The notes: generated by a model not told the origin, from the sequence alone. A stretch of 64,000 bases of DNA from an uncultured Rickettsiales bacterium (GCA_950054255.1 CATLOR010000001.1:839589-903588), one strand, 5' to 3'; shown: positions 19,504 to 43,900, counted from the first letter of the stretch. Translations and numbers: made by a program.

Positions 19504-19506
19504 TTT

Positions 19507-21750: not shown

Positions 21751-21810
21751 GAATATCTATCGAATGATAGAAGTTATATCAACTTTAACGCTAAAGAGTT
21801 ACTGAAAAGT

Positions 21811-22506: not shown

Positions 22507-22637
22507 TTTTTAACCCTTTTTACCATATTTAATAATCATACATATTTATATAGTTTTAGTCAATGGAAATATTGAGATTGTTAATATATTCATGTTAAAA
22601 TGTCTCACAATTATAGATTTGAATAAGGAGCCCAGTT

Positions 22638-28600: not shown

Positions 28601-29276
28601 TGCTTTGACTGTAAATGGTCAGGCTGTATCGGTTACATTGCACAATAATGTCTATACAGGAACTGCAGGGGGTGTCACTGTTTTCACATTAGAGATTGAT
28701 GATAATGGCGGCTATGAATTTACATTATTTGAAGCTTTTGATTATGATGATTCCTCTCAAGATGGTGAAATTGTTCATTTAGACTTTGGCTACGCTGTTG
28801 AAGATGGTGATGGGGATATTGACGTTGGCTCTATTCGTGTTTCGGTCGTTGAGGGCGATGAGCAAGTTAATATTATCATCGGAACGCCAGACAATGATGT
28901 TTTAATTGGAACGGATATTAATGATATTATTTATGGTGAAGGCTGTGCTGATATCATGGAAGGTGGTGCGGGTGCTGATACATTCGTAATGGCGGATGTT
29001 GGAGAGCATAACCGTGATATTATCTCTGACTATGATATTAATGAAGGAGATGTTATTGACTTATCTGATTTGATTGATCCGCAAAGTTTTACAGGGGATT
29101 TATCAGATTATCTAGCTTTTGATGAATCTGTAAGCACGCTGCATGTGGATGCAACAGGGCAGGGTCAGTTTAGCGATGATACACAAGCTGTTTTAATTGG
29201 TGACGTGGATGCTGGGGATACGATTGCTGTAAAAATTGGTGATCAAATCTTGGATGTAAATGTCGATAGTATTTAA
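22638..29276 (+). CDS. Giant (2212 aa) type I-secreted repeat adhesin-like protein
   Basis: AAGGAG RBS. N-terminal module followed by TAAG at residues 129-132. About 9 units start VDET(G/D)GF...TINSDGSYSFTQL..IDHP...FGFTATDGDGDS..G.ITVTV.DDGP (T1SS-143-like). These alternate with VCBS/cadherin-like units (INGQYGVLTLNSDGSYSYTAN...FAYTIVDNDGDSA). There are two S/T/N-rich linkers and C-terminal RTX-like nonapeptides (GTPDNDVLIGTDINDIIYGEGCADIMEGGAGADTF). The acidic C-terminal tail has DVIDLSDLI, typical of T1SS C-terminal target domains. Confidence 0.9.
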   Translation: MTDQSVDLTNTGNVTQEALSFVEKDGVQAVQLSKPEAPNEKLSVKATAINKIVTDFNPDEVDVSLREGSLLFSFDNGAVIEIEGFALIDPMPEIILADGTIIAGDVVVAQLGETLDPDEVQEMLQQIETAAGGQQSPSNDGSSSYSDDFGAIIDLLSFSPPIGFGAFLRSFTGLDDREDDVLLAQQQTLVDPTPSADDVSISVDETDYVNNTQTLSGVLPVEFNGQTGTVEPSPTAGFLVSGSVSAGSLTSNGQPVTVSVQGDRYVGTLPNGTTAFEMIINNDATYTFNIYEQLDHGDITDVNDLMTFSFGYIVTDATGDQTTATIAVNVFDDAPVAAKETLTVDETGGFNSVSGQLDADLGEDSDGASFAGNGSFNLNNATSNGLVITTAYSNGTYYGVAFGSPVFELTINTDGSYSFTQLGPIDHPDGTDPDDAFDVTFGFTVTDGDGDTSDGTIVVTIKDDGPVALDDSLSVDEGATVTGNVVANDLYGTDGAGQVISLEGQHVALGGSVTINGQYGVLTLNSDGSYSYAANSNTSLDGVLTESFAYTIVDNDGDTASASLNLEIDFGADTVPVFLNESIIVDETGGFDTVNGQLDVDFGEDSVGAFTDGNGQSNVNSLTSNGNAITVNYSNGTYTGVAGGVSVFTLTINSDGTYSFTQLAAIDHPDSSDDNDAVNMTFGFTATDGDGDSGDGTITVTVLDDGVDIFPALGIVDETNGFTTGVSGSVDFDYGADGAGELHLGDAAHHVSFQVIGGHALTSDGQPVTVTLQNGSYVGSVNGSVVFELSLDAQGNYSYEQYQPLDHPDSSDTNDALGLEFGFTVQDNDGDTVESTIVINVLDDGPVASADVNSKTLSGVDDLITGNVVTGANGGTNASDSYGSDGAGHVSRIESPTGQVLAIADGQTVTIDGQYGALTISSDGSYSYDLYDSLASTGSGGSSNNNSNTNTGSNNTNTNSGGSSSSTSTSTSTSTSTSTGSGSSQTYTERFEYTIIDNDGDTVETTLTINATLDATPDPDDQPDVDNASNLVDETGGFDTVSGQLVADFGNDAAGSSFDGNGQSNTNGLTSNGQAIAVTYNNGVYTGVAGGVSVFTLTINSNGSYSFTQLAAIDHPNTGNPDDAVDLTFGFTATDGDGDSGDGVITVTVRDDGPTAVNDSASASEGTTVTGDVVANDSYGFDGAGRVTQISGQAIAEGGSVTINGQYGVLTLNSDGSYSYTANTNTSLEGIRSESFAYTIVDNDGDSANATLTLDIDFGGDSVPIITNEAITVDETDGFDTINGQLDVDFGEDSANASFDGNGQSNTNGLTSNGQAIAVTYNNGVYTGVAGGVSVFTLTINSNGSYSFTQLAAIDHPNTGNPDDAVDLTFGFTATDGDGDSGDGVITVTVRDDGPTAVNDSASASEGTTVTGDVVANDSYGFDGAGRVTQISGQAIAEGGSVTINGQYGVLTLNSDGSYSYTANTNTSLEGIRSESFAYTIVDNDGDSANATLTLDIDFGGDSTPIITNEAIQVDETGGFDTINGQLDVNFGEDAVGASFNGNGQSNVSGLTSDGQPIAVSYNNGTYTGSAGGSTVFTLKINSDGSYTFKQLAAVDHPNTHNPNDAVNIRFGYRATDGDGDSANGTITVTIKDDGPAARADVNTRTLSGVDDLITGNVVTGTNGGANASDSYGFDGAGHVSRIESPTGQVLTITDGQTVTIDGQYGVLTISSDGNYSYDIYDSLSTSGSSSNNNTNNNSNSGGSGLSSSSSSSSSNGGSNSGNSSQTYTERFEYTIVDNDGDTVETTLTINATLSVTTGPDDQPDVDNAANVVDETGGFDTVSGQLVADFGNDAAGSSFNGNGQSNANGLTSNGQPIAITYSNGTYTGVAGGVSVFTLTIGSNGSYSFTQLAPIDHLNASNPNDAVNFTFGFTATDGDGDTGDGTITITVFDDGPQAGYQAIQLLEEDDLNTTFVGNLFRDFGADDVGGYVFAGDSNANSAFSFTGINALTVNGQAVSVTLHNNVYTGTAGGVTVFTLEIDDNGGYEFTLFEAFDYDDSSQDGEIVHLDFGYAVEDGDGDIDVGSIRVSVVEGDEQVNIIIGTPDNDVLIGTDINDIIYGEGCADIMEGGAGADTFVMADVGEHNRDIISDYDINEGDVIDLSDLIDPQSFTGDLSDYLAFDESVSTLHVDATGQGQFSDDTQAVLIGDVDAGDTIAVKIGDQILDVNVDSI
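25443..25589 (+). repeat. Low-complexity Ser/Thr/Asn-rich linker inside the adhesin gene (copy 1)
   Basis: Encodes STGSGGSSNNNSNTNTGSNNTNTNSGGSSSSTSTSTSTSTSTSTGSGSS, including an (AGC/ACN/TCN) dipeptide-type microsatellite. Confidence 0.85.
25815..27136 (+). repeat. Perfect 599-bp direct duplication with 723-bp period inside the adhesin gene
   Basis: 25815-26413 is base-for-base identical to 26538-27136 (checked line by line). The first mismatches are C/T at 25814/26537 and T/C at 26414/27137. The period of 723 bp (241 aa) keeps the frame. Confidence 0.9.
27810..27932 (+). repeat. Low-complexity Ser/Asn/Gly-rich linker inside the adhesin gene (copy 2)
   Basis: Encodes STSGSSSNNNTNNNSNSGGSGLSSSSSSSSSNGGSNSGNSS. 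It is the positional equivalent of the linker at 25443-25589 in the ~2.37-kb super-repeat. Confidence 0.85.
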
Positions 29277-29382
29277 TGTCATAAATCTTATAAAACAGCA
29301 TTTTATTTTTTAATTGAATACTGTATAGTGACCGTCTAGAATAAGTGAACGTAATTTTTATGAATCTTAGAGGGTCTCTATT

Positions 29383-30750
29383 GTGTTGAAAAAAACTAAT
29401 TATTTAAAAACGTTAAAGCAATCTGTTTGTTCGGCGGCCTTAGCGGGGTTTTTGATCTTTTCGCCATCTGCTCATGGAACAACATTGGAGCAAGCGATTG
29501 AGATAGCAATTGAGCACAATCCTCGTATCGGTGTTGTTGCGAGAAACCAAGAAGCGGTTGTAGAAGAGTTACATCAAGCAGAAGGGCTGTATTTACCCTC
29601 AGTTGATATTTCAGCAGGTGTCGGTGTTGAAGATACAAGCACACCAGCTGTTCGTGCAGGTAATAATGGCGAATCAGAAGGTCTTCTTGCAACCGATGCG
29701 ACACTCACAATTACTCAAGATTTATTCGATGGATATGAGCGTCAAGGACGTGTTGAACGTCAAAAAGCGCGTATCGAATCGGCTTCTAATAGAGTGTATG
29801 AAAACTCAGAGAATTTAGCACTTGATGTTGTTGGTGCTTATTTAGATGTTATCCGTCAAAGAGAGCTGCTTGCTCTTGCGCGTGAAAATGTGGCTTTCCA
29901 CGTTGAAACACTTGAAGCTTTGGTTAAGAGATTACGTGGTGGAATTGGAACGCGTGCAGATGTTATTCAAACACAGGCACGTTTAGCACGTTCTCGTGCG
30001 ACATTTGTTTCAACAAATAATGATTTAGCGGATGCTGAAGCACTCTATACGCGTTTAGTGGGGCAATATCCAGGCGACTTAGTACTTCCTTCTACTGTTG
30101 AAGATATGATGCCAGCGTCTATGGATGAACTGGTTCAAATGGCAACGATTGATAACCCAACGGTTAAGATTTCAGAAGCTGATGTGAAAGTTGCAAATGC
30201 CGATGTGAATATTTCAGAAGCTGAATTTTATCCTCAAGTATCTCTCCAAGCATCAAGCACGTATGATGAGCGAAAAGATGGGGTGAATACGTATACATAT
30301 CAAAACATTCTAGGATTACGTATGAACTGGAACATCTTTAATGGTGGAACGGACCGCGCAACACGCCAAGAATTCTTAATGCGTGAAGAACAAAGTAAAA
30401 GTCAGCGTTATGATGCTATTTTAGAGGCGCAACAGCAGGCTAGACGTTCTTGGTATGCTTATGTTGCCGCAGGTCAGCAATTACAAGAATTAAGCTCTGC
30501 TGTTATCTTTAACCAGCAAACACGTGAAGCTTATGAACAACAATTCCAAGTCGATCAAAGAACACTCTTAGATGTGTTGGATGCTGAAAATGAGCTCTTT
30601 ACGTCACGTGGACAATTAATATCAGCAGATATTAACAAAATCTTGTCATCTTATCGTATTTTGGCTGTTGCTGGTAAATTGTTAAGATCTTTGAATGTGT
30701 CCGCGCCACAGCAGGCTTTCGAGGCAGTTTTGTACAGTCAAGACGATTGA
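29383..30750 (+). CDS. tolC: TolC-family type I secretion outer membrane protein
   Basis: 455 aa with a GTG start and a signal peptide. TLEQAIEIAIEHNPRI opening and two OEP repeats. Confidence 0.9.
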   Translation: MLKKTNYLKTLKQSVCSAALAGFLIFSPSAHGTTLEQAIEIAIEHNPRIGVVARNQEAVVEELHQAEGLYLPSVDISAGVGVEDTSTPAVRAGNNGESEGLLATDATLTITQDLFDGYERQGRVERQKARIESASNRVYENSENLALDVVGAYLDVIRQRELLALARENVAFHVETLEALVKRLRGGIGTRADVIQTQARLARSRATFVSTNNDLADAEALYTRLVGQYPGDLVLPSTVEDMMPASMDELVQMATIDNPTVKISEADVKVANADVNISEAEFYPQVSLQASSTYDERKDGVNTYTYQNILGLRMNWNIFNGGTDRATRQEFLMREEQSKSQRYDAILEAQQQARRSWYAYVAAGQQLQELSSAVIFNQQTREAYEQQFQVDQRTLLDVLDAENELFTSRGQLISADINKILSSYRILAVAGKLLRSLNVSAPQQAFEAVLYSQDD

Positions 30751-30905: not shown

Positions 30906-31028
30906 GCCTAAAATAGGCGCTGTTATCATTTATTTTTAAAGATTATCCTTGGTAAATCGTTGAAAGATCGTTATTCTAAAGTGCGTCGTTTAATGCGCTT
31001 GTATTTTCTTATTTTTAAGGTTTCTCAT

Positions 31029-33107
31029 ATGGATACACACTCTTCAGATCAAGATTTATCAACATTTGAATATAAAAAACCAAAAGAAGCAAAAATAGCT
31101 GCGAAATCAAAATTGTTTGGTTTGTTGGTTTTACTCGTTTTGGTTTTAGGTAGTTTCTTTATTGCTAACCAGATTATCAAAGAAGAAAAGAATAATTTAG
31201 AGCAGCATTTAAAACAGCAAATAGAAGTCCTAACATTAGAGCGGTCAAATGTTATTTCTGAGTGGTTAGCGGGGATTTTGAAACAATCCCGTTCAATTAC
31301 AAAAAATGATATTTTTAGATTATATGCGGTTGAGCAAGATTCTAAGAAAGAAGAAGGTAAAGACACGGTCTCTAAATATGCTGATCAATTACCTTATATG
31401 ATTAATGCCTTGAGTGACTTTGTTCAAGATACGGAATATCGCGGAGCGTATATGTTGAATAGGGATGGTGAAACATTTTTAGCAAGTATGGATTCTCGCC
31501 CTTTGGATAATGAACAGAAATTAGAAGCTCTTCGCTTGTTTGATAATGGTCAGGCATCATATTCTGTCGTTCGCTCACGTGATGAAGGACTGGAATTTGA
31601 TTTATTTGTACCAGTGTTCCCTGTTGATGAAACAGCGGGATCAAATAAAATTTCAGCGATTTTTGTTTTTACAATTCCTGTTAAAGAGCAATTTAAGCTG
31701 CTTTTACATGATAAGCCTGTCAATGGTGTTGAGGGCAGTTACTCTTTGTTTCAAAGAACATTTGATGCAAAGATACAAGAAGTTCGCTTGATTAATGGCG
31801 AAACAATATTAGACAGTGCCTTGCCAATTTCTGTGTTTTCAACGCCAACATTGAGTTTTGGTAAAAGAGCAGATTTTAATGGAAGCGCAAATGTCTATTC
31901 TTTTGGAGCGGCTATTCAAGCGACGCCTTTTTATCTTGTGTGGCAAACACCAGAAGATGTTGCAAATGCTCAGATTGATAAATTTATTTTGAATACATAT
32001 CTTGTTGCGATTTTCTTTGTGTTATCGCTTGTAACAGCATTTGGTGCGTTTTGGTGGCGTAATAATAGTGATCATAACAAAGTTCTAGCTGAACAATATG
32101 CTAAATTTGCTCATAAATTGGGTAAACAAAAAATGGTTCTAGATAGCATTAATAATACGATTAAAGAATTTATTACACTTAAAGATCGCTACGGAAAATA
32201 TATCTATGTTAATCCGGCTTTTGCTGAGGCTGTGGGGTCAAGTGTGGAGAATATTTTAGGGCAGGATGATGCCTCGATATTAGGGCATGGAACAGCGATG
32301 AAATTGGAAAAACTGGATGATTTAGTGATTTCTTCTAAAGAAGCTTTGTCTGTTGTTGATGAGATTTATTTGCAAGGTGAAAAACGTCATCTCCAAATTT
32401 CAAAATTCCCCTATTTATCAGAAGATGAAGGTGAAGAAGAACGGAATATTATTACGGTAGCTAGGGATATTACAGACTTAGTAGAAGAGCAAGCTCGTCG
32501 TGAAAAGTCAACAAAGCAAACGGTTCTAGCTTTAATTCGCGCAGTTGAATTAAGAGATCCTCATTTAGCGGGGCATTCTAAAAGAGTGGCGGAGATCGCA
32601 TCACTTGTTGCAAATGAGATTAAGCCTGATCCTCGTATCAGACGCACAGTAGAGATTGCTGCGACCTTATCACAAGTTGGTAAACTTGACATCCCATCAG
32701 AGATTTTAACATCTGAAAAAAGATTATCAGATGAGCAGTTTGAAATCATGAAACGCCATGTTGGGAATGCAGAGAAAATTATTACAGATATTGATTTTGA
32801 TGTCCCAGTTTTAACAGCCATTAGCCATATGTATGAGCGTTTAGATGGGAGCGGTTATCCGCGTGCTATCCATGATGATGAAGTGTCTTTGGAAGGGCGT
32901 ATTTTAGGGGTATGTGATTATTTTTGTGCACGTATCGAACCTCGCTCATACAGGCAAGCGATTTTACCTAAGGATGCTTTGAAATATCTGGAACAGAATA
33001 GTAAGAGATACGATCCTAAAGTTGTACAAGCGCTGAGAACTGTAATTCATTCTTCTGTTGGTGAGCGAATTATTGCTTCTGTTGTTGCTTCACATAAAGA
33101 TATGTAA
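31029..33107 (+). CDS. Transmembrane sensor protein: periplasmic domain, PAS, HD-GYP domain with substituted HD dyad
   Basis: Start set at ATG 31029 (AAGG RBS). TM1 LFGLLVLLVLVLGSFFIANQII, about 270 aa periplasmic, TM2 YLVAIFFVLSLVTAFGAFWW, then PAS (LDSINNTIKEFITL...ITVARDITD). The HD-GYP-like domain has GHSKRV...AATLSQVGKLDIP...KRHVGNAEKI...SHMYERLDGSGYP. LSQVGK occupies the position of the family LHDIGK. Confidence 0.8.
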   Translation: MDTHSSDQDLSTFEYKKPKEAKIAAKSKLFGLLVLLVLVLGSFFIANQIIKEEKNNLEQHLKQQIEVLTLERSNVISEWLAGILKQSRSITKNDIFRLYAVEQDSKKEEGKDTVSKYADQLPYMINALSDFVQDTEYRGAYMLNRDGETFLASMDSRPLDNEQKLEALRLFDNGQASYSVVRSRDEGLEFDLFVPVFPVDETAGSNKISAIFVFTIPVKEQFKLLLHDKPVNGVEGSYSLFQRTFDAKIQEVRLINGETILDSALPISVFSTPTLSFGKRADFNGSANVYSFGAAIQATPFYLVWQTPEDVANAQIDKFILNTYLVAIFFVLSLVTAFGAFWWRNNSDHNKVLAEQYAKFAHKLGKQKMVLDSINNTIKEFITLKDRYGKYIYVNPAFAEAVGSSVENILGQDDASILGHGTAMKLEKLDDLVISSKEALSVVDEIYLQGEKRHLQISKFPYLSEDEGEEERNIITVARDITDLVEEQARREKSTKQTVLALIRAVELRDPHLAGHSKRVAEIASLVANEIKPDPRIRRTVEIAATLSQVGKLDIPSEILTSEKRLSDEQFEIMKRHVGNAEKIITDIDFDVPVLTAISHMYERLDGSGYPRAIHDDEVSLEGRILGVCDYFCARIEPRSYRQAILPKDALKYLEQNSKRYDPKVVQALRTVIHSSVGERIIASVVASHKDM

Positions 33108-33198: not shown

Positions 33199-34200
33199 AT
33201 GAAGAGAATTTTTTCACACGCTATTATATGTGGTTTAGGCCTGTCATTAATGGTTTCTCATGCAGGAGATGTAAAAGCTGAATCTGATATTTTCGGAGGT
33301 ATTTACGATTTTGATTCTGCTGAAGGGAAATCGTCATATGGAACAGTGTTTAATCAAAACTTATATAAAGGTTATTATGAGCTTTCATTAGAGTTACGTG
33401 GTATTACAAATTCAATTGATACAGAACTTTTTAATCATAAAGCATTACTTGCCTCAAAAGGATCGCCTGTTGACCCTGATCAAGTGATGGATAGAGAGTT
33501 GTATCCAGAAGAAAAAACAGTTTTCCAAGATGCGCTTTTCCGTCTTTATGACGCATACGCTAAAGGAGGAAAAGAGTTTGCTCCAGCATTATCAGCAACA
33601 GCTCAGGTCAGTTTTGATTGTTGGATTGAGGCAACGGAAGATGGTGCAACGATTTATGCAACAGAGTGTCGTGACCGCTTTGAAAAAGCTCTTACAAATA
33701 TTGAACGCGTTGCGAATAAAGATATTGTAGCAATTACGGTATCTCCACCATTGCGCGCAATCGAAGTACCTGTGGAGCCTGTTGTTGCTGTTGTGGAGCC
33801 TGTTCCTGTGCCTGAAATTATTGAACCTGTTGTTGATGAAATCCCTCAAGAGGTTTTGGATCAATATATTACAATTCCTTTTGAGTTTGATAAAACAAAG
33901 TTTGCCTCTGGTGGTGAAGAGAGTTTAAAGAAAGCATTAGATGCTTTAAATGCGTATGAGCGTTTAAATGTTGAGTTGATTGCTCATGCGGATAGAGCTG
34001 GTCCTGCTGCTTATAATAAGAAATTATCACAACGTCGCGCGGACGCAGTTCTTGCACGCTTGATTAAAGAAGGTATTGGCGAGAGCCGTATTAAGCTTGT
34101 TGAAGCTGTTGGTGAAGAGAAATCCCTTTTCCCAACAAAAGACGGCGTTCCTTCGCAAGAAAACCGTGTAGTTGAGCTTGATCTTGTAAAAGCAGAGTAA
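33199..34200 (+). CDS. OmpA-family protein (alphaproteobacterial type with FDCW N-domain, Pro-rich linker, OmpA_C domain)
   Basis: Start at ATG 33199 after AAGGAAAG. Signal peptide MKRIFSHAIICGLGLSLMVSHA. Linker VPVEPVVAVVEPVPVPEIIEPV. C-terminus FEFDKTKF...LIAHADRAGPAAYNKKLSQRRADAV. Confidence 0.85.
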   Translation: MKRIFSHAIICGLGLSLMVSHAGDVKAESDIFGGIYDFDSAEGKSSYGTVFNQNLYKGYYELSLELRGITNSIDTELFNHKALLASKGSPVDPDQVMDRELYPEEKTVFQDALFRLYDAYAKGGKEFAPALSATAQVSFDCWIEATEDGATIYATECRDRFEKALTNIERVANKDIVAITVSPPLRAIEVPVEPVVAVVEPVPVPEIIEPVVDEIPQEVLDQYITIPFEFDKTKFASGGEESLKKALDALNAYERLNVELIAHADRAGPAAYNKKLSQRRADAVLARLIKEGIGESRIKLVEAVGEEKSLFPTKDGVPSQENRVVELDLVKAE

Positions 34201-34207
34201 CTTTTGT

Positions 34208-35152
34208 ATGAAAATTGGATTGCTTATTGACCCTTTAAGAACACTTGCTGTTCATAAGGATACGTCTTGTCGTCTTGCTGCTGAAGCGGAAAGACGGAAT
34301 GCTGAAATATTTTATTTCACATTAGAGGATATTTTTTTAGAAGGAGAGCAAGTCAAAGCATCAGGATGTTATGTTTCTTTTGATGCTGGAAAAGGGTTAA
34401 GCAATAGTGTTCGTTACCTTAATAGAGACGTAATAAATTTAAAAGAATTGGATGTTTTGCTTATTCGCAAAGATCCACCCGTTACGTCAACACATATATC
34501 CATTTTATATTTATTAGAATTGCTGGAAAATGATGTTTTGATGATTAATGCACCACGCGCTATTCGAAATGGTCATTCGAAGTTGCAGACCTTAAAATTC
34601 CCACAATTTCTACCAGAGCAATTAATTGCTTCTAATATTGATCAAATATCAAAATTCATTGAAAAACATAAAGACATCATTGTAAAACCTCTTAATGGTA
34701 TGGGGGGATCCGGTGTTGTTCGTCTTAAGCCGGGGGATAAAACAACAAAATCACTTTTGCAAACGATGGAGAGGGCCTATGGCTATCCGCTCATTGCTCA
34801 AAAATTTATAAAAGAAAGCGTTGAAGGCGAAAAGCGTATTTTCTTATTTGACGGTGATATTTGTGGCGCAATCGTCAAAAAACCAGCGAAAGATGATTTT
34901 CGAGGCAATATCACAGCAGGTGCAACGATTAAAAAAGCAATACTCTCTGAAACAGATAAAGAGATTTGTGAAACTTTAAAACCGTATTTAAAAGAACGGG
35001 GTTTGTTTTTTGTAGGCCTTGATTTAATCGGCCCTTACTTAATTGAAATTAATTCCATTAGTCCTGGGGCAATTAGTTTGGCAAACACAGTTCTTAAGCA
35101 GCCTTTAGAAGAGATTTTTTGGGATAAAATCGAAAGAAAATTAAAAGCATAA
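34208..35152 (+). CDS. gshB: Glutathione synthetase-type ATP-grasp ligase (GshB family), copy 1
   Basis: 314 aa, collinear with E. coli GshB: KDTS, LIRKDPP, IVKPLNGMGGSGV, EGEKRIFLFDG, DFRGNITAGA, FVGLDLIG..LIEIN. Confidence 0.8.
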   Translation: MKIGLLIDPLRTLAVHKDTSCRLAAEAERRNAEIFYFTLEDIFLEGEQVKASGCYVSFDAGKGLSNSVRYLNRDVINLKELDVLLIRKDPPVTSTHISILYLLELLENDVLMINAPRAIRNGHSKLQTLKFPQFLPEQLIASNIDQISKFIEKHKDIIVKPLNGMGGSGVVRLKPGDKTTKSLLQTMERAYGYPLIAQKFIKESVEGEKRIFLFDGDICGAIVKKPAKDDFRGNITAGATIKKAILSETDKEICETLKPYLKERGLFFVGLDLIGPYLIEINSISPGAISLANTVLKQPLEEIFWDKIERKLKA

Positions 35153-35190
35153 CCTTTATTTCTTATCGCAAATCATGTTAGAATCAGATT

Positions 35191-35223
35191 AGACACACAT
35201 TCTAAGTGTGTTTCCTTTTTTTT
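35191..35223 (+). terminator. Rho-independent terminator after gshB copy 1
   Basis: 8-bp stem AGACACAC/GTGTGTTT with a 7-nt loop, followed by CC and T8. It lies inside the GTG-extended ORF-track version of the next gene. Confidence 0.65.
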
Positions 35224-35244
35224 ATCTATCCAAAAGACGCAGAC

Positions 35245-36003
35245 ATGACTAGAAATAAAATAAGAAAACCTATGGTTGGTGTTGTTTCACACGTTAAACC
35301 ATTAGGAAAATGGAATGTTCATTACACTCATCGTAAATATATTATGCCTTTAAACAATTGTGATTTATGCGCTCTTGTTATTCCGTATCATGATGATGAT
35401 AGCTATTATCGTGCTATTGCAGATAGTTTAGATGGGTTTTTACTTGTTGGTGCACACAGTAATGTTTACCCAGAACATTATAACGGTAATATAGACGATC
35501 GTTATGGCCCGTATGACCCACAAAGGGATAAGGTTTCTATGGTGCTATTAGAAGAAGCACTGATGCAACATAAGCCTATTTTAGGGATCTGTCGTGGGTT
35601 ACAAGATATGAATGTTTTTATGGGAGGGACGCTACATCAATATCTTCCTGACATTACCGATGTGAAGCATCATATTTTGGAATATAGTGATATTCATGAG
35701 GTTTATAAAAATCGTCATGATATCAATGTGGAGGAAAAGACTTTATTAGGTGAAATTGTTCAAAATAAGACAATTAGCGTAAATAGTGTTCATAAACAAG
35801 GGATTAGAGATATTGGTAAAGGCTTAACTATTAATGCCAAAGCCACAGATGATATTGTGGAAGCGGTTACATTAGATGATCATGAAAATTTTGGTATGGG
35901 TGTTCAATGGCATCCGGAATATGATTTTTCTTATGATCCATATTCTAAGGCTATTTTTAAAGCATTCTCAGATGCTATTTACAAAAGGAAATATGAAGTG
36001 TGA
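35245..36003 (+). CDS. Class I glutamine amidotransferase-like / peptidase C26 gamma-glutamyl hydrolase (PuuD-like)
   Basis: Start at ATG 35245. Nucleophile elbow ILGICRGLQDMNV and VQWHPE histidine motif. Its stop overlaps the GTG start of the next gene (GTGA). Confidence 0.8.
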   Translation: MTRNKIRKPMVGVVSHVKPLGKWNVHYTHRKYIMPLNNCDLCALVIPYHDDDSYYRAIADSLDGFLLVGAHSNVYPEHYNGNIDDRYGPYDPQRDKVSMVLLEEALMQHKPILGICRGLQDMNVFMGGTLHQYLPDITDVKHHILEYSDIHEVYKNRHDINVEEKTLLGEIVQNKTISVNSVHKQGIRDIGKGLTINAKATDDIVEAVTLDDHENFGMGVQWHPEYDFSYDPYSKAIFKAFSDAIYKRKYEV

Positions 36004-36968
36004 CACAGAAAGTTTTTGGATATTTCTCTTCACCAATTGAAGACTTAGAAGTTGATATTCTAAGTGGTGTGCGTATTTATAACGAGGCTCAAAAGCGTGG
36101 TTATAAGATGGTCTATATTTATCAAAAGACGCTGAGTTTTGAGAATGGTGCGCTATATGCACAGGCCTGCGAGATGAATTTCTTCCCAGATCGTGACAAA
36201 ATAGAAGATCGTTACGAACAAGGTGAAATGTATAAATTTAATATGCATGATCTAGATGTTTTATTTTTTAGAAAGCCGCCCCCTTTAAATGAAGAATATA
36301 TGGCATATACATATTTCCTTGAAGCCTTAGAAGAGCAAGGCGTGTTATGTATTAATAGTCCTAAAGGAATGAGAGGTGGCCATTCAAAGTTACAGACATT
36401 GAAATTCCCAGAATATATTATACCGACCCTTTTTAGTTTGAATGTGGATGAGATTGTCAGTTTTGTTCATGAGCATAAAAAAGCGGTTATTAAACCGCTT
36501 GATGCAAAAGGCGGTGAAGGGATCTTGATGCTTCATCATGATGACTTAAATTTAAAATCAATGATTGAAACGGTTAGAAAAGCCTATGGGAATTTAGTCA
36601 TTGTACAAAAATTTATCCCCGAAGCGGTAACAGAAGGGGATAAGCGTGTTCTATTATTTGATGGAAAACCTTATGGAGCTATGCTTCGTCAAGCCAATAA
36701 ATCTGACTTTAGGACAAATGTAACAGCAGGTGGGACTTTTGTAAAAACAGATCTTACAGATCGTGAAAAAGAAATTTGTGATGTTATTGGTGAATATCTC
36801 AGAGATAATGGCTTATTTATGGTGGGGCTTGATTTGATTGGAGGTTATATCACAGAGATCAATTGCACAACCCCTGGGGCTATGACCTATATCAACAAAT
36901 TATACGATATCAAACTAGAAGAAAAATTCATGGATATCGTCGATGAGAAAACGCAAGCAAAACCATAA
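36000..36968 (+). CDS. Divergent GshB-family ATP-grasp ligase, copy 2
   Basis: 322 aa; FFRKPPP, GGHSKLQTLKFP (shared with copy 1), IKPLDAKGGEGI, EGDKRVLLFDG, DFRTNVTAGG, MVGLDLIGGYITEIN. The N-terminal substrate-binding region is more diverged (no KDSS-like motif). Confidence 0.7.
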   Translation: MTQKVFGYFSSPIEDLEVDILSGVRIYNEAQKRGYKMVYIYQKTLSFENGALYAQACEMNFFPDRDKIEDRYEQGEMYKFNMHDLDVLFFRKPPPLNEEYMAYTYFLEALEEQGVLCINSPKGMRGGHSKLQTLKFPEYIIPTLFSLNVDEIVSFVHEHKKAVIKPLDAKGGEGILMLHHDDLNLKSMIETVRKAYGNLVIVQKFIPEAVTEGDKRVLLFDGKPYGAMLRQANKSDFRTNVTAGGTFVKTDLTDREKEICDVIGEYLRDNGLFMVGLDLIGGYITEINCTTPGAMTYINKLYDIKLEEKFMDIVDEKTQAKP

Positions 36969-37056: not shown

Positions 37057-37746
37057 ATGTTTTCCAAAAAAGAAATCAAAATGAGATGGCATTCATATGT
37101 TCAAGAACAGATTGAGCAAGGGAAACCAAAACCAGAAGCTAGCTTGAACCTAGCGCTCTTAATTGCGTCTTCTGCCTTGATGAGTCAAAAGCTATGGAAC
37201 GGTGATGATTATATGGATCATCCTATGTTTGTGGCGATGCATAATACAGATTCCATGAAAAAGAAAATCGTGGGTATTTTACATGATGTTGTTGAAGACA
37301 GTGATTGGACAATTGATGATTTAAGAGAGCTTGGCTTTGATGAGGAGATTGTTTTAGCTGTTGGTGCCGTAACAAAACGACCAGGTGAAAAATATGTAGA
37401 ATTTATCGAACGTTGTGGAGCATCTGGTGCTGTTGCGATTGATGTGAAATTAAAAGATTTACATCATAATTCTATTAATATCCGTACACCAAATATTGAT
37501 AAAACGGAAAAGCAAAGATTGAAATCAGGGCTTTATAATATTTCTTATTATTATCTTTTGGATATTAAAAAAGGAAAAGTTGAGGCTGGTACAAAGCTAT
37601 CTGATTATATTCAGTCACACCCTATATATGGGCAGCAAAGCAAGATTTTGATTGAGCAAATCTATTCATCATTTTCTGCGCAATCATATCAAGAGCAAGC
37701 CGAAACACATCACTTAAAAAGATCACCAGTTCCAAACTGCTCTTAA
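37057..37746 (+). CDS. Stand-alone HD-domain protein, RelA/SpoT-hydrolase-like (small alarmone hydrolase candidate)
   Basis: 229 aa; MDHPMFVA...IVGILHDVVEDSDWTIDDLRELGFDEEIVLAVGAVTKRPGE...DVKLKDLHHN resembles the (p)ppGpp hydrolase HD_4 core. No synthetase domain. Confidence 0.65.
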   Translation: MFSKKEIKMRWHSYVQEQIEQGKPKPEASLNLALLIASSALMSQKLWNGDDYMDHPMFVAMHNTDSMKKKIVGILHDVVEDSDWTIDDLRELGFDEEIVLAVGAVTKRPGEKYVEFIERCGASGAVAIDVKLKDLHHNSINIRTPNIDKTEKQRLKSGLYNISYYYLLDIKKGKVEAGTKLSDYIQSHPIYGQQSKILIEQIYSSFSAQSYQEQAETHHLKRSPVPNCS

Positions 37747-37764: not shown

Positions 37765-38610
37765 TTATGAATTAATGCCCTTGTTGAAATCTAAAACGAG
37801 GCGAGGGCCTTTGTCAGCACTGACAGGTGGAAGTGTGAATACCTTAACTGTCATATCGTCGCCGTTTGTTGTAATGCGCATTGTTGAATATTCAGGGAAT
37901 TGCTTGGATATATAGCCTGTAATTAAGCCCTCTTTCTTTGATGTCCATGTCTTATCTGCAGCCCAATCGGTCTTATCAAAAGTGATGACAATATCGCTTT
38001 CATCTTTTGTGATATCATAATTCATTTCACTGTTAGGGGCAAAGTCAACAACAAGGCGCGTTCCAGCATTGAAGCTCCCAAAGCGAATATCTACAATTTC
38101 ATGAGGGAAACCGAGTTTATCAACAGCCATATTGTCATCTTCACCTATCATAGCTTTTGCGAGATCTGTTGGCGCAGTATTTGATGGTGATGTTTCACTC
38201 ATCATTTTATCATCTGGAGCCATATTTGGAATGTCTGTTTCTACTTCTGCATTATCGAGATCATCAGGTGTTTCTGCAGGGGGATTTGCATCTTCAAGAC
38301 GGCGGCTTACGGCAGGGTCTGTTAATTTAGATAGCTCTGTAATAAGGGTTTGAATATCAGATTCAATGGCAACTAAATTTTGGATATTTGGCTCAACAGC
38401 GCGGAAATCACGTTCCAGTAGATCTATACGTTGCTCAATCTTCTTCATTTGATCTTCAAGTACCTGTTGCTCTTTGTCACCAGAACTACCGATATATTGC
38501 AAAGGAGAGCCGATTGTTTCTTTTGTATCGGCGCAACCAAATAGCAAACTGCTCAGAACTAATCCGAGCATTATATGTGCTAGCAATGATATATTGTGGT
38601 TAAAAGTCAT
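37765..38610 (-). CDS. Lipoprotein with coiled-coil, acidic/Pro-rich linker and C-terminal AMIN-like domain
   Basis: Lipobox LLFGC. C-terminus IVDIRFGSFNAGTRLVVDFAPNSEMNYDI...VKVFTLPPVSADKGPRLVLDF resembles AMIN (AmiC/PilQ N-terminal) domains. The start codon overlaps the chaperone stop (ATGA). Confidence 0.55.
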   Translation of the reverse strand: MTFNHNISLLAHIMLGLVLSSLLFGCADTKETIGSPLQYIGSSGDKEQQVLEDQMKKIEQRIDLLERDFRAVEPNIQNLVAIESDIQTLITELSKLTDPAVSRRLEDANPPAETPDDLDNAEVETDIPNMAPDDKMMSETSPSNTAPTDLAKAMIGEDDNMAVDKLGFPHEIVDIRFGSFNAGTRLVVDFAPNSEMNYDITKDESDIVITFDKTDWAADKTWTSKKEGLITGYISKQFPEYSTMRITTNGDDMTVKVFTLPPVSADKGPRLVLDFNKGINS

Positions 38611-39425
38611 GGGCGATTAAAGGTAAATTCGTGAAAAATCCTATTATTATATTCGTTTTTTCCTTCGTAGATAACACGAAGCTTTTTGATAGAGGAGGGG
38701 ATGTCTTCATAAATGGGGATAGAGACATTTTTTTGTGCGGTTTCAGGGAAGATAGAAACATTGTTTACGACCGCGAGAAGGTTTTCGTTACTTGTGTCAT
38801 TCGCATCAAAAACCTTTAAGCTTCCATAGGTGCTGGCGTCACCAGTGCGAGAAATGGACACAATGAATTGGTCTTGTTGATCTGATGCAATGCTTTTTTT
38901 ATAATCAACAGCAGTGATTTCCGCATTAACTTCCAAATTGCCTTGGCGGAGAATAACAGGGATGCTGATTGATAGGTTTAATGACAGGCTAATCCCTGCA
39001 GGGTTGTCTTGATAGTCTTTTGGATCAGAGAGTTGTTTGAAGAGAAGGTGTGAACGATATTCACCATCTTCAAGTCCTGCTGGTTTACGAACAGCGATAC
39101 GGATGGCTTGTTTATCACCAGGAGCGAGTGTTACTTGGCGCGGGCTAAAGCGAATGAAATCTTGTGATGTTTTAATAGATGCATATCGTGGATCATTTTC
39201 TTCGATTATTTCATAACTTCCGTTTTCATCAACGATTGTATTAAACCATTCTGTTCTAAATGTTGCGACTTTATCAGATCTGTTGATGATAGTGATGACT
39301 TGTGAACGTGTGCGGTCTTCGAAAACGGCTCTGTAAGGGGTCACCATAATGCTAGCTATGCCATTGAAAGGAATAGATAAAGTAATTAAGAATAGACATA
39401 AAAAAATAAAAAAACGACTCGGCAC
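38607..39425 (-). CDS. PapD-like periplasmic pilus chaperone
   Basis: 272 aa with a signal peptide. IMVTPYRAVFEDRTRSQVITIINRSDKVATFRTEW and FSPRQVTLAPGDKQAIRIAV...EYRSHLLF follow the two-domain chaperone pattern. Confidence 0.7.
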   Translation of the reverse strand: MPSRFFIFLCLFLITLSIPFNGIASIMVTPYRAVFEDRTRSQVITIINRSDKVATFRTEWFNTIVDENGSYEIIEENDPRYASIKTSQDFIRFSPRQVTLAPGDKQAIRIAVRKPAGLEDGEYRSHLLFKQLSDPKDYQDNPAGISLSLNLSISIPVILRQGNLEVNAEITAVDYKKSIASDQQDQFIVSISRTGDASTYGSLKVFDANDTSNENLLAVVNNVSIFPETAQKNVSIPIYEDIPSSIKKLRVIYEGKNEYNNRIFHEFTFNRP

Positions 39426-39514
39426 GAGGATCCTCCTGATTCATATAAAATTATAGAGTGATTTGCCCTATAAAACCAAAGACTTTTTTAGATTTTTTCT
39501 TTATTTTTCAAGGA

Positions 39515-39982
39515 TTAAAAGTTCGCAGTTATTTCAACTTCACCTGTGTAAGCGCCATCAGAATAATAATTTCCATTTCCCGATGTGGATAGGGTTGTTC
39601 CGACATTAAAGGTTGCGGATCCGCCTGGATCTGTTGTGATTGTTGCAGGGTCTGTGACGGCATCTGATATTGAAAAATATTGTGGTCCTATACCATCATG
39701 AAGGACATCTGTTGCCGCAAAGCTAACGGTAATTGTTGTGTTGCCGGGGAAGCTTTGTAGTCGAATACGGGCGGAGTCACCATCTGATAGGACGACAATA
39801 TGGCTTGGGTTGGCTGTAATATCACCGTTTGGAGCGATAATGAGATCGCGTGGAGCGTCATTATCGACGATTGTGAGGTCGCCATAAATAAATTGTCTTA
39901 ACACATCAATAGTTTGTGCCGTTGCCGTAAGGGGGGCAAGGCTTACGAGTGTTAAGAATGTTATAAGGGCATATTTTTTCAT
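39515..39982 (-). CDS. DUF4402-like secreted subunit (155 aa, putative minor pilin)
   Basis: Start moved to ATG 39982 (MKKYALITFLTLVSLAPLTATAQT). Beta-rich, ending GSATFNVGTTLSTSGNGNYYSDGAYTGEVEITANF. Confidence 0.65.
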   Translation of the reverse strand: MKKYALITFLTLVSLAPLTATAQTIDVLRQFIYGDLTIVDNDAPRDLIIAPNGDITANPSHIVVLSDGDSARIRLQSFPGNTTITVSFAATDVLHDGIGPQYFSISDAVTDPATITTDPGGSATFNVGTTLSTSGNGNYYSDGAYTGEVEITANF

Positions 39983-40011
39983 TGATCCTATAGTAGGCGA
40001 TTCTAACAAAG

Positions 40012-40043
40012 AAAAAAGGCCTGAATTCAATTCAGGCCTTTTT
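40012..40043 (-). terminator. Strong hairpin/U-tract between the two subunit genes (intra-operon terminator or attenuator)
   Basis: Minus strand: AAAAAGGCCTGAATT-G-AATTCAGGCCTTTTT, a perfect inverted repeat followed by TTTTTTC. It is 22 nt after the stop of the 193-aa gene. Confidence 0.75.
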
Positions 40044-40065
40044 AAAATTCTTATATTTACAGATA

Positions 40066-40647
40066 TTAGTATGCAACTGTTACGTTGTATGTACCTGTGT
40101 ATGATCCAGCTGCTTCATAAGCGCCTGTTCCTGCGATTGTGCTTAATGTCGCACCAACGTAGAATGTAGCGTCACCAGAACCATCTGTTGTTACTTGGTC
40201 GTCGGCGCCATCGTCAACGAATGTATCAACTGTGAAATCAGGTGTACCAGGAGCACATGCACCACATGATAATGTGATAGGAGCCGCTGGTAATTCGATG
40301 TTCATAACTGTTGTTGCAAGCGCACCACCAATATCAAATTGTGCACGGTCACCATCAACTGAAGATACGATGAAATCGTCTGTAGCGCCACCAACGTTTG
40401 TTACTGTTACGCTGTTAGCTGCATCAGCACCGATATCAAGAGTTGCTACGGCACCACCACCGCCACCACGGCGAGATGCTACGATTGTACCAAAGTCAAT
40501 AGCTGATGTTTCTGTTACTGTGAACGCCGCTGCTGTTGTTACACTAGCGTTAGACGCCGTCGTTACTTGTGCCTGTACAGGCGAAGACATAGCAATAACT
40601 GCTGCTGCAGCGATAGCCATGTAAGATGTTTTCGTAAATAGTTTCAT
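40066..40647 (-). CDS. DUF4402-like secreted subunit (193 aa, putative major pilin)
   Basis: Signal peptide MKLFTKTSYMAIAAAAVIAMSSPVQA. A/T/G-rich beta protein with AIDFGTIV near the N-terminus, ending ATFYVGATLSTIAGTGAYEAAGSYTGTYNVTVAY. GAGGA RBS. Confidence 0.65.
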   Translation of the reverse strand: MKLFTKTSYMAIAAAAVIAMSSPVQAQVTTASNASVTTAAAFTVTETSAIDFGTIVASRRGGGGGAVATLDIGADAANSVTVTNVGGATDDFIVSSVDGDRAQFDIGGALATTVMNIELPAAPITLSCGACAPGTPDFTVDTFVDDGADDQVTTDGSGDATFYVGATLSTIAGTGAYEAAGSYTGTYNVTVAY

Positions 40648-40978
40648 GCTTCCTCACTTTCAATTTACGTTACGTTTACGTGGTTACTTTTATAAAAAAG
40701 TTTTCAAACCAAGAGGCTTAAATGTATCTGAGATTTATTGCGCAGGGCAAAATATCCTTTCTGTTCATATAAGCACCTTGACGACTGACAAGGTCGATAT
40801 AACCATTATGGCAGGTAAAGTCTTAAAGAATACTTAAGACGTACTTAAAAATATCACACAGATTTTATAAAATCAACAAGCAATTAACAGTTTGTTTTTT
40901 TAGGTGTTTTCTGATAGTTTTGAAGAGTATACATTAATATCCACAACTTTACTCACAAAGTTGTAACTAAGCGTCGCT

Positions 40979-43900
40979 ATGAAGATAAGTAAAAAAATGA
41001 AAAAAATAATGGCTTTTCAGGCTGTTTTTATGACAGTGGCTATGGCTTCTATGCCGATGGCTTATGCTTCTACGAGTTTGCAAGATTTGGCAAAACGCTT
41101 TTTATCAACCGTTGGTGAAAAATTAGAGAATGCGGAAGAGTCTAGGCGTGCTAAAGCGAAAGGTAACGTTAATTCACTGGTTGGAATTGCTGATGGTGAA
41201 GAGCTTGTTTTTGCTCTAAAAAAAGGAAGTTTAGTTCTTTCTGAGGCGCTTTTTGCTCAAAAGAAAGAAGGAAGGCTGTATCTATACTTTGATGATTTCT
41301 TAAGAGCTGTTGATTTTCCAATCGATATTGATCTTGAGGCTAAGAAGGCAGATGGATGGTTTGTGCGTGAAGGTAATCGCTTCTCAATGGATCTAGAGGC
41401 ACAAGAAATTATAGTTAATGAGTATCAAATTCCTTTAGAAGCGAGTGATTATTTTATATTAGAAGAAGGTTTTGGGGGGCTTTATATTGAGAAAGCTGTT
41501 CTTGAACGTGCTTTTGGAGTTGGGTTGGATTTCAAAGTTTCGAATCTTGAAATCCGTTTTTCAAGTGATTTTGCTCTTCCTGTTGAGGAGAAACTATATA
41601 GACAACAGAGAAAAGAGAGTCTGATTTTCACGAAAAATGAAGCAGAACTTCCTGAGATTAAGCAAGACTATAAAATGGCAACGATGCCTTTTGTTGATGT
41701 GCAAATGAGGAATTCATATCAAAAAAGAGAAGGTGCGGATGAAGCTCAAACAAATGCATCCTATTCTGTGATAACGGCGAGTGATTTCTTGTATGGTGGT
41801 TTAAAAACATATACATCAGGTAGTGATACTGAGAAGATTGAGCAATTTCGTTTTGATTGGACGCGAGAATCTCAATCAGAAGATGAAACTATTTTAGGAT
41901 TTAATAAAATACAAATGGGGGATGTGACGACACCGCGTTTGAATGTATTTAGAGGTTCTGGGCAAGAATTTGGCTTTAGACTCAGTAATGAAAGCTCTTT
42001 TCTTAACAAAGAAAATGAAAAAACAGATGTAACTCGTTTTGAAGGCGATATTCAGCCAGGCTGGGATATTGAGATTTATCGTAATAATATCTTAGTTGCA
42101 ACTCACACGGCTGATTCTACGGGGCAATATATTATTGAAGATGTGCCTCTTACTTTTGGAGAAAATAACTTTCGACTTGTTTTTTATGGCCCGCAAGGAC
42201 AGGTTTCAGAACGTGAAGAACTTATTATTAGGCGCAATAATCGATTTGATATTGGTGAGGCAACTTATAGTGTGTCCTTAACAAACCAAAATGAAATCAC
42301 CTATAGAAATGAAGATGCTGGCTATGCAGATTTACCAGATTCAGGTTCTCCGAACTTAATAGGGACCATGGATTTTGGTTTAAGTGATGAATATTCAATG
42401 TCTTTAGGTGGCCGTATTCTTGAACGTAATAAAGAGCAGTTAATTCAAGTTGCAACAGGGCTAACAGGGTATTTTGATTCTGGCATCTATGAAGCTAACT
42501 TAGGAGTTGAAGATACAGGAGAGTATGCGATTGAATTATCAGCTCTGACAAATATAAATAGGCAATCTGTTCGGGCGAGTGCTGAGTTTCGTTCGGATGA
42601 CTTTGATAAAACGCGCCCTGATGTAGATAATTTGATTCATTTATCAGATGTAAGTGTGAGTGGTGAAATAGCACCTTCTGTTAATTATCTAGCGACGCAT
42701 GAATATAGAAAATTTGAAAGCGGGAATAATAGGCAACAATTAGGCTTTGATGTTTCTAAGAAGGTTAGAAAAGGTCTTTTTGGCGTTGGTTATGACTATG
42801 TTAAGAGTGATTTTTCTGGAATTGATACAAATACTCAGACAGTCTCTTTAAATGGGCGTTATAATTTGGGCGGATACTTTCTGCGTGGGAATATAAATTA
42901 TGATATTGAGCCAGAACCAGGGGCGCGTTCTTATTTAGTTGCTGCGCATACAAGGCTTAATGAGAAGCTAACAGGGGATGTTCAATTAGAGCATACACCA
43001 AGTAATTCAAGAACAGAATTAAGAACACGTCTTAGTTACACAGGTGAGTATTTCACATTAACACCAGATTTACGTGTTAATTCAGATAATGAAATCTTTG
43101 CTTTTACAACGTTGCGTTTTGGTCTTGGTGCTGATCCATATTCTGATAATTTAAAAGTTCATAGAAATGGTCTAACATCACGTGGAGGTGTTTCTGCTCG
43201 CGTTTTCTTGGATGAAGATGGTGATGGTATTTGGGATATATATGAACGCCCTCTACAAGATGTAAAAGTCATGGGTAAACAAATTGCTCAGTTTGATACA
43301 ACAAATGAGCATGGTGTTGCTTTTATTCCATCATTTAATGCGGGGCAATTAACCGATATTACGATTGATCCGAGAACGCTTGAAGATCCATATTATGTTT
43401 CTCTAAATAAAGGAAACTCAATTCGCGCACGCTCTGGTCAGGTCACGCAAATGGATTTCCCGATTGCAATCTCTGGAGAGATTGATGGGTCTGTTTTCTT
43501 TTATGATCGTTATGGACAAAGACAGCCTGTTGCCAATATGAACCTTTTCTTAGTGAATATGGATGGCAAAATAGTGAATACAGCGCTTACGGCTTATGAT
43601 GGTTTTTATGTGATGAGTGATATCTTTCCAGGTGATTATCACGTGATCTTAGATCCAATTGTTTTGGAGCAAAATAAGCTCGTTCAAATAGAGCCTAAAG
43701 GCTATCATTTCGGAGCGTCAGGGACCGTGTTTTATGATCAAAACTTTACGACTTATTATGATGATATAAAGCCTCAAAAAATGGCTGAGATTAATGCTAA
43801 TCCAAAAACAGAAACAAAAATGGTCTTAGAGTTAGGGCGGTTCAAATCAAAGCTGATGCTAGCGGTTCAATGGCTTAAATATAAAGTGAATTATAGAAGT

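Follow-up and report, generated by a model that had tools for sequence, protein, structure and literature searches.

An uncultured Rickettsiales bacterium (GCA_950054255.1, CATLOR010000001.1:839589-903588) carries three adjacent genes that encode two diverged GshB-type ATP-grasp ligases, here termed copy 1 and copy 2, and, between them, a gamma-glutamyl hydrolase-like protein of the peptidase C26 family. The genes lie in a 64-kb stretch of DNA, hereafter the window, and the same ligase-C26-ligase order is kept in 7 of 7 divergent genomes examined. Both ligases retain the fold and the ATP-binding core of glutathione synthase, lack residues that are nearly invariant in orthodox GshB, and form a clade of their own. 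We tentatively propose that the trio is a lineage-specific module which arose from glutathione metabolism and acts on a glutathione-related gamma-glutamyl peptide; this is the account we favour, although we would place it just short of probable.

The Pfam domains GSH-S_N and GSH-S_ATP together span each of the two ligases in full (E 1e-23 to 1e-55). The ligases are 40% identical to one another and align end to end with E. coli GshB (1GSA), copy 1 spanning 1GSA residues 2-313. An AlphaFold model of copy 2, with a mean predicted local distance difference test score (pLDDT) of 87.6, finds its best structural match in 1GSA (template modelling score, TM, 0.89/0.91; root-mean-square deviation 2.5 Å), whereas RimK reaches a TM of ~0.69. 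The motifs GHSKLQTLKFP, GEKR/GDKR, DFR.N.TAG and GLDLIG...EIN are present. Numbered as in E. coli GshB, as are all ligase residues below, the ATP-, Mg2+- and phosphate-binding residues K125, K160, G166, G167, Q198, R210, D273, E281 and N283 are kept in 14 family sequences, the one exception being G166A in a single copy 2 orthologue, and the lid-loop residues R233 and N235 are kept in both ligases. All three genes are under purifying selection: between the window and its closest relative, the locus L004, the ratio of non-synonymous to synonymous substitutions (dN/dS) is 0.09 for copy 1 and 0.06 for the C26 gene, and copy 2 has a dN of 0.14 with dS saturated.

The anatomy of the trio (Table 1) bears out most of what an earlier note, made from the sequence alone, had described. 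That note had reported two full-length GshB-like ligases, with which the coordinates, the Pfam matches and the 1GSA alignment agree; the ligase motifs it quoted are all present; and the C26 gene it placed between them is confirmed by the Pfam family and an intact triad (see below). It had also noticed that the C26 stop overlaps the GTG start of copy 2, and this overlap is indeed in the sequence, reading GTGA at 36000-36003. The equivalent 4-nucleotide (nt) overlap reads ATGA in L004, an orthologue at 82-84% identity, which supports the GTG start of copy 2. The listed open reading frame (ORF) of the hydrolase opens at GTG 35206 (265 aa), within a hairpin, and some gene callers picked ATG 35272; of the three candidate positions ATG 35245 is most likely the true start, judging by the orthologues, which measure 249-253 aa. 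No gshA or GCS-type, glutathione S-transferase, glutaredoxin or glutathione reductase domain was found by a Pfam scan of 46 window ORFs, nearly all those listed with at least 120 aa, so that the earlier remark on the missing gshA stands for the window, and no further gshB was seen in the window beyond copies 1 and 2.

Outside the ATP site, the ligases depart from orthodox GshB. The family was aligned, as 14 sequences taken from the loci plus 9 others, with E. coli GshB and 165 additional GshB hits. In this alignment, E124 is replaced by Ser in all 23 family sequences, although this residue is conserved in 99% of the 166 orthodox sequences; it is also retained by 144 of 147 diverse representatives (98%), these being the top hits of a family-profile search of 1.84 billion representative proteins. 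T288, 96% conserved in orthodox GshB, is Gly in every family sequence. Other changes are confined to one copy. D9 and D19, each 98% conserved, are lost in all copy 2 sequences (D9S/E, D19L), which upholds the earlier claim that the N-terminal region of copy 2 has diverged, and copy 1 keeps both residues. Copy 1 alone carries D208E and R225K, the latter at a position that is Arg in 100% of orthodox sequences; copy 2 keeps R210, R225 and D208, with R225 retained at 6 of the 7 copy 2 loci. By their near-invariant residues outside the ATP site (E124, T288, R225, D9 and D19), the proteins fall outside orthodox GshB. Judged from sequence, neither copy appears to be a normal, orthodox GshB, and copy 1, with R225K and D208E, is as atypical as copy 2.

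Phylogeny and profile scores separate the family in the same way. In a midpoint-rooted neighbour-joining tree with 56 diverse orthodox GshB, copies 1 and 2 form one long-stem clade apart from the latter (100 of 100 bootstraps), and inside it each copy is monophyletic (bootstrap 99 for copy 1, 88 for copy 2). Hence, one already divergent ancestor was duplicated before the lineage radiated. A phylogeny had been put forward in the earlier note as a check on whether the copies are orthodox, and it places both outside orthodox GshB, in agreement with the loss of residues that are 96-100% conserved there. Copy 1 and copy 2 sequences average 44% identity with each other and 34-35% with orthodox GshB. 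On the curated models, the family scores 110-140 bits lower than orthodox alphaproteobacterial GshB, represented by the proteins of Kordiimonadaceae and Thalassospira: with NF003573 (cutoff 272 bits) the window copies score 303 and 307 bits, the family 297-333 and the orthodox proteins 434-443, and with TIGR01380 (cutoff 299) the corresponding values are 289 and 294, under the cutoff, 281-315 and 397-412. Among the 1.84 billion representatives, scores in the family range were obtained only by the clusters of copy 1 (511 bits) and copy 2 (493) and by one 213-aa fragment (337), and ordinary GshB form a smooth continuum from 341 bits down. The relatives of copy 2 comprise six at 46% identity or more, followed by ordinary GshB at 39% or less; those of copy 1 reach down to ~51% identity, with the copy 2 orthologues at 42-48%, again followed by ordinary GshB at 39% or less.

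A few rare metagenome GshB-like proteins outside the family carry similar substitutions. P0062 (locus L015, 692-1690), P0345, P0349 and P0356 have E124 replaced by S, T or G together with G288 and N88; the three representatives without E124 in the tally also carry G288, as does P0062. P0062 has SKL.TL.FP and EINC.SPG in common with copy 2, matches the PRK12458 subfamily model best and has no C26 gene beside it on its 2-kb contig. On sequence grounds, these four proteins may represent a wider, unstudied class of non-canonical GshB-type ligases. A link of ligases with S124 and G288 to HD-domain genes was considered and rejected, the HD proteins downstream of P0062 and of copy 2 being unrelated (E 16).

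What the residue changes may mean can be read, by homology, from cyanophycin synthetase. Its G domain resembles glutathione synthetase and has, six residues past the Mg2+-binding Glu, a Gly by which the tetrahedral intermediate is stabilised. The Arg two positions beyond that Gly binds the alpha-carboxylate of the acceptor, the acceptor is positioned by an Asn from the large loop, and the gamma-phosphate lies between two Args (PMC9427784). By homology, GshB T288 would correspond to CphA1 G456, adjoining the acceptor-binding R458; by position, N235 would be the loop Asn, and R210 and R225 the two phosphate-flanking Args. RimK, which adds glutamate and not glycine, has SPG at the 288 position as well. 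By this analogy, both copies would be altered at the acceptor or transition-state site, and copy 1 also at an Arg that contacts the phosphate or the acceptor. In copy 2 the change lies in the N-terminal domain, the part that holds the donor substrate in Ddl, a related ligase.

The middle protein belongs to the peptidase C26 family (PF07722, E 5e-61, 207 bits), with a secondary match to PF00117 (E 3e-12, 47 bits), and its Cys-His-Glu triad is intact and invariant (C116 in GICRGLQ, H223 and E225 in QWHPE). It scores 141 bits with the PuuD equivalog model NF008471, well below the cutoff of 266, and thus lies outside that equivalog; the closest solved structures are P. aeruginosa SpuA (7D4R, 150 bits) and E. 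coli PuuD (6VTV, 118 bits). Four positions that are 86-97% conserved in 108 generic relatives are changed in the family (E144 to I/V, E197 to N, W226 to Y and E121 to D), and the family bears ~25 invariant residues of its own. Eight relatives are found at 52-85% identity, after which identity falls sharply to 40% or less; the nearest relative outside the family, from Litoribrevibacter (40%), belongs to a typical puu cluster, whose other genes encode two glutamine-synthetase-like ligases, a polyamine transporter, an aldehyde dehydrogenase and an aminotransferase. Genes of the puu/spu type were found neither among the window ORFs scanned nor in the six related loci. Among 49 metagenomic loci of at least 5 kb with a generic C26 gene, no GshB-type neighbour occurs, and none of three orthodox alphaproteobacterial gshB loci has a C26 neighbour. 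A C26 enzyme known to act on glutathione is plant GGP1, which cuts glutathione and glutathione conjugates at the gamma-Glu-Cys bond; C26 hydrolases and glutaminases have the S1 gamma-Glu site in common (PMC12958103).

The genomes compared, namely the window and six others (L004, L007, L008, L009/L010, L011/L012 and L013/L014), represent a single lineage of marine metagenome-assembled genomes (MAGs); relatives at 57-70% identity are Tara Oceans MAGs labelled "Rickettsiales bacterium". In all loci the gap between the C26 gene and copy 2 is -4 to +20 nt. The most distant members of the family share 50-53% identity in copy 1 and likewise in the C26 protein, and 44-50% in copy 2, values low enough to indicate an old lineage. 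In every genome with the trio, a region of ~30 kb is syntenic, comprising adhesin, TolC, PAS/HD-GYP, OmpA, in some M48, then the trio, a pilus cluster and a class I tRNA synthetase. A metagenome scan yielded, besides 79 unrelated C26 loci, a single additional fragment of the family (L017), and a scan of genome contigs gave only orthodox gshB, from Kordiimonas, Kordiimonadaceae and Thalassospira. The precedents for gshB paralogue pairs found in the literature are restricted to Rhodococcus isoprene plasmids and nematode effectors, neither of which is comparable.

The transcription unit of copy 1 may be that of the OmpA/M48 genes upstream and not that of the C26-copy 2 pair. In the window, 7 nt separate the stop of the OmpA gene, whose start at 33199 is inferred from the signal-peptide-like MKRIFSHAIICGLG, from the ATG of copy 1, and the two genes are probably co-transcribed; whether the OmpA gene should be counted as part of the module is uncertain. 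OmpA orthologues lie upstream in all six other loci, with an M48 zinc-peptidase gene intervening before copy 1 in five of them (L007 4850-6130, L008 4971-6164, L009 7662-8909, L011 7314-8597 and L013 7726-8970). This gene has been cleanly lost at ~34200 in the window and in L004, where the distance from the OmpA stop to the copy 1 start is 7-17 nt. Between copy 1 and the C26 gene, a spacer of 90-124 nt is found across all loci. In the window it holds a hairpin at 35191-35213 with an 8-bp stem of which three pairs are G-C, followed by a T run to 35223. The terminator that the earlier note had seen here is therefore present as a hairpin with a T run, but it is weak, and terminator-like sites are little enriched in the region (11, where 6.5 +/- 2.5 would be expected). 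An extended -10-like element, TGTTAGAAT at 35176-35184, lies just 5' of the hairpin; an element resembling TGnTAnAAT occurs in most of the related spacers, in which hairpins also recur and the spacer sequence itself is unconserved. A promoter-like element ahead of a terminator-like hairpin is an odd order, which could mean a leader or an attenuator. An Rfam search of the spacer gave no credible riboswitch or known RNA family.

Taken as a module, the trio would have originated from an ancestral GshB that lost E124 and T288 before duplicating, and the two copies would have been kept since as distinct enzymes that flank a specialised gamma-glutamyl-bond hydrolase derived from PuuD/SpuA-type proteins. 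We infer the substrates, the order of the reactions and the physical or functional coupling of the three proteins as follows. Each ligase would spend ATP on converting the C-terminal carboxylate of a small donor peptide to an acyl phosphate, to which an amine acceptor would then be coupled; this mechanism, established for the GshB family, is attributed to both copies because their ATP-, Mg2+- and phosphate-binding residues are intact. Copy 1 most likely still takes a gamma-Glu-X dipeptide as donor, since its N-domain residues are those typical of GshB. For copy 2, the remodelled N-domain pocket makes a different or longer donor most likely, for instance the product of copy 1. In both copies, Gly in place of Thr at the acceptor or transition-state position suggests an acceptor other, or larger, than glycine. 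The C26 protein, translationally coupled to copy 2, would cleave the gamma-glutamyl amide of the product or of an intermediate by means of its Cys-His-Glu triad, resulting either in turnover or in removal of a gamma-glutamyl handle, for which plant GGP1 offers a precedent. Going one step further, it is possible, if rather doubtful, that a widespread uncultured marine alphaproteobacterial clade makes an undescribed low-molecular-weight gamma-glutamyl peptide or thiol with two dedicated GshB-derived ligases and a C26 hydrolase, or a glutaminase partner. The product could be a glutathione analogue with a C-terminus other than glycine, glutathione with a fourth residue or an amine, or amidated glutathione. 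The synthesis and turnover module proposed in the earlier note is partly supported by the distinctness of the ligases and the conserved gene order, while the nature of its product is read from residue changes whose roles are assigned by homology.

Several points weigh against the module as just described. Copy 1 is split from the C26 gene by the 90-124 nt spacer and its terminator-like hairpin and is instead tightly joined to the OmpA or the M48 gene. The earlier note had suggested the conservation of neighbours as a check; the order does recur in all seven genomes, but it is weak evidence of coupling because the whole region is syntenic and may reflect shared ancestry within one lineage only. 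Neither the metagenome scan nor the representative search found the trio outside this lineage, so there is no independent co-occurrence. Both window copies exceed the NF003573 equivalog cutoff. G288 occurs in 14 of the 147 diverse GshB-like representatives (~10%) and is hence not diagnostic by itself, and DFR.N, tried as a signature of the family, had to be rejected, the DFR lid loop being present in orthodox GshB too. In the accessible literature, no documented role was found for GshB E124, D9 or D19, nor for T288 other than by homology with cyanophycin synthetase. One of the two copies must be the housekeeping enzyme should the genome encode gshA but lack another gshB.

The main rival is that the trio serves ordinary glutathione metabolism. 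One or both copies would then be housekeeping GshB that evolves fast, the C26 protein would be either a generic PuuD or a cytosolic enzyme that degrades glutathione as GGP1 does, and the adjacency would be an accident frozen by synteny. We consider this unlikely, though it deserves real weight. Both copies pass NF003573, one orthologue is called glutathione synthase by NCBI, the catalytic and ATP-binding residues are all intact within a GshB fold, the entire neighbourhood is syntenic, and the window is without another gshB; moreover, protein divergence is often accelerated in AT-rich marine bacteria with small genomes. Against this rival stand two paralogues that have been kept under purifying selection since before the radiation and whose changes are complementary, lying in the N-domain of copy 2 and at R225K and D208E of copy 1, and not parallel. 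The absence from both copies of E124, a residue 98-99% conserved, a C26 protein with ~25 family-specific invariant residues and without acidic residues conserved in PuuD, and the tight junction between the C26 gene and copy 2 at all loci speak against it as well. Redundancy is, in addition, unlikely to persist in apparently small genomes (orthologue-bearing contigs measure up to 1.69 Mb).

The overlap or near-abutment of the C26 gene and copy 2 in all loci is typical for subunits of one complex, and could also be taken to mean that the C26 protein is a glutaminase which feeds ammonia to copy 2, as a glutamine-dependent amidoligase that might convert the glutathione made by copy 1 to glutathione amide, with a logic like that of CarA/CarB or GatD/MurT. 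Glutamine is itself a gamma-glutamyl amide. The class I amidotransferase triad with its PF00117 match (E 3e-12) and the S1 gamma-Glu site common to C26 hydrolases and glutaminases (PMC12958103) are compatible with this, and glutathione amide does occur in some bacteria, the literature found on it describing no biosynthetic genes. We nevertheless regard an amidoligase as improbable: the protein is clearly of the PuuD/SpuA type and not of the TrpG/CarA type (207 bits with PF07722 against 47 with PF00117), SpuA and PuuD are stand-alone hydrolases, and the sequence shows the triad and the gene overlap but no sign of an ammonia channel or a complex. Furthermore, glutathione amide is known from anaerobic phototrophic sulfur bacteria, unlike this type of organism, and its presence in A. 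vinosum is disputed. Less probable still, and in our view highly unlikely, is a RimK-like tailing system in which the ligases add amino acids to a protein C-terminus and the C26 protein, perhaps with the M48 peptidase, trims them under cyclic di-GMP (c-di-GMP) control through the PAS/HD-GYP neighbour. The ligases do have secondary RimK matches in Pfam (E 1e-14 to 1e-15) and the DFR.N and SPG motifs in common with RimK, the HD-GYP gene and, in five loci, the M48 gene lie just upstream on the same strand, and in Pseudomonas a system of this kind is reportedly formed by the phosphodiesterase RimA, the protease RimB and the ligase RimK. The GSH-S_N domain, which closes over a small substrate, is however kept in both proteins, the fold of copy 2 is far closer to GshB than to RimK (TM 0.9 versus 0.69), and the ligases score 70-75 bits with TIGR00768 (rimK_fam) against a cutoff of 143. 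C26 enzymes, moreover, cut gamma-glutamyl and not alpha-peptide bonds, and the M48 gene is dispensable, being missing from the window and from L004. The probability that remains falls to something not considered here.

Around the trio, the window carries chromosomal housekeeping genes beside secretion and pilus clusters (Table 1). A complete type I secretion locus extends over 18178-30750; the giant orthologues of its adhesin-like protein in related loci carry DUF5801, Big_9 and cadherin-like repeats, and a divergent gene for an RHH_4 protein (21811-22506) beside the exporter genes could regulate them. Between the secretion genes and the OmpA-ligase genes lies, in all related loci, the PAS/HD-GYP gene. 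Downstream of copy 2, the gene at 37057-37746 has orthologues in L004, L008, L009 and L011, is absent from L007 and L013, and is probably a variable companion outside the core; its product matches the NCBIfam model spoT_relA over residues 33-107 (E 1e-8, far under the cutoff) and Pfam HD_4 with no better than E 0.2, and it may resemble a small alarmone hydrolase. Also conserved in all related loci is a pilus cluster at 37765-44101, putatively of a chaperone-usher-like kind. The ffh (SRP54) gene at 56947-58488 is immediately preceded by an RF01793 motif.

Table 1. Features of the trio and of its surroundings in the window
Feature	Position	Strand	Evidence or remark
Copy 1, GshB-type ATP-grasp ligase, 314 aa	34208-35152	+	Pfam, NCBIfam, alignment, tree
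Spacer, 92 nt	35153-35244	+	Extended -10-like TGTTAGAAT, hairpin, T run
Peptidase C26 / class I glutamine-amidotransferase-like gamma-glutamyl hydrolase, 252 aa	35245-36003	+	Pfam, triad
Copy 2, GshB-type ATP-grasp ligase, 322 aa	36000-36968	+	Pfam, NCBIfam, tree, AlphaFold model
OmpA-family envelope protein gene	33199-34200	+	Pfam OmpA E 1e-14; directly upstream of copy 1
Small protein, 229 aa, weak SpoT/RelA-type HD match	37057-37746	+	Downstream of copy 2
PAS + HD-GYP (HD_5) putative c-di-GMP phosphodiesterase	30960-33107	same as trio	N-terminal membrane or Cache-like region
HlyD-type fusion protein	18178-19503	-	Type I secretion
ABC exporter with C39 peptidase domain	19507-21750	-	Type I secretion
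Repetitive adhesin-like protein, 2212 aa	22638-29276		Long near-identical internal repeats
TolC-like outer membrane protein	29383-30750		Type I secretion
Two genes without Pfam match	37765-38610, 38607-39425	-	Pilus cluster
Two DUF4402-family secreted proteins	39515-40030, 40066-40647	-	Pilus cluster
Outer-membrane-usher-like protein, 1040 aa	40979-44101		Pilus cluster
ffh small RNA/leader motif RF01793	58524-58575	-	Rfam 40 bits, above gathering score
Two RHH_4 ribbon-helix-helix proteins	1549-1911, 21811-22506		Domain match

Automated annotation labels the ligases "glutathione synthase" and the hydrolase "hypothetical" or PuuD-family, which would wrongly imply an ordinary duplication of glutathione synthesis. 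If the trio does make a different gamma-glutamyl peptide, the short list of bacterial low-molecular-weight thiols and peptides would grow by one, and a redox or nitrogen-handling trait would be revealed in a marine planktonic lineage known only from metagenomes. It would also show, by a case from nature, how GshB-type ATP-grasp enzymes evolve their specificity for donors and acceptors, with positions 124, 288, 225, 9 and 19 as candidate determinants. Should plain glutathione metabolism prove correct instead, GshB residues that were thought invariant would be shown to be dispensable.

The trio can be set beside several known systems. The ligases match E. coli GshB (1GSA) in two-domain architecture and fold, are 31-40% identical to it from end to end, and retain R233/N235 as well as the residues that bind ATP, Mg2+ and phosphate; they differ in their separate clade, the residue changes, the lower scores, their arrangement as an old tandem duplicate with a hydrolase gene in between, and the lack of a nearby gshA. 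The alpha-L-glutamate ligases RimK, MptN and CofF belong to the same ATP-grasp superfamily and share with the window copies the DFR.N lid loop and the SPG that follows the Mg2+-binding E-x-N. However, they are without GSH-S_N, and the window ligases score 70-95 bits with their models, against cutoffs of 143-350, with a TM of ~0.69. PuuD and SpuA resemble the C26 protein in fold, triad and length and are 35-40% identical to it, whereas the C26 gene described here neighbours ligases of the GshB type and not of the glutamine-synthetase-like type, without the aldehyde dehydrogenase, aminotransferase and polyamine transporter. Plant GGP1, a cytosolic C26 enzyme that cuts gamma-Glu-Cys, performs the role proposed for the middle gene; the likeness is one of proposed activity, and GGP1 is eukaryotic, distantly related and not encoded beside ligase genes. 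Conceptually, the trio also resembles the glutathionylspermidine and trypanothione synthetase-amidases (GspSA, TryS), in which an ATP-grasp-type ligase that extends glutathione is combined with an amidase that reverses the reaction. GspSA and TryS are single fused proteins, composed of a CHAP-type amidase and a GSP_synth-type ligase; the trio, whose ligases have no significant GSP_synth match, differs in distributing a C26 hydrolase and two GshB-type ligases over separate genes.

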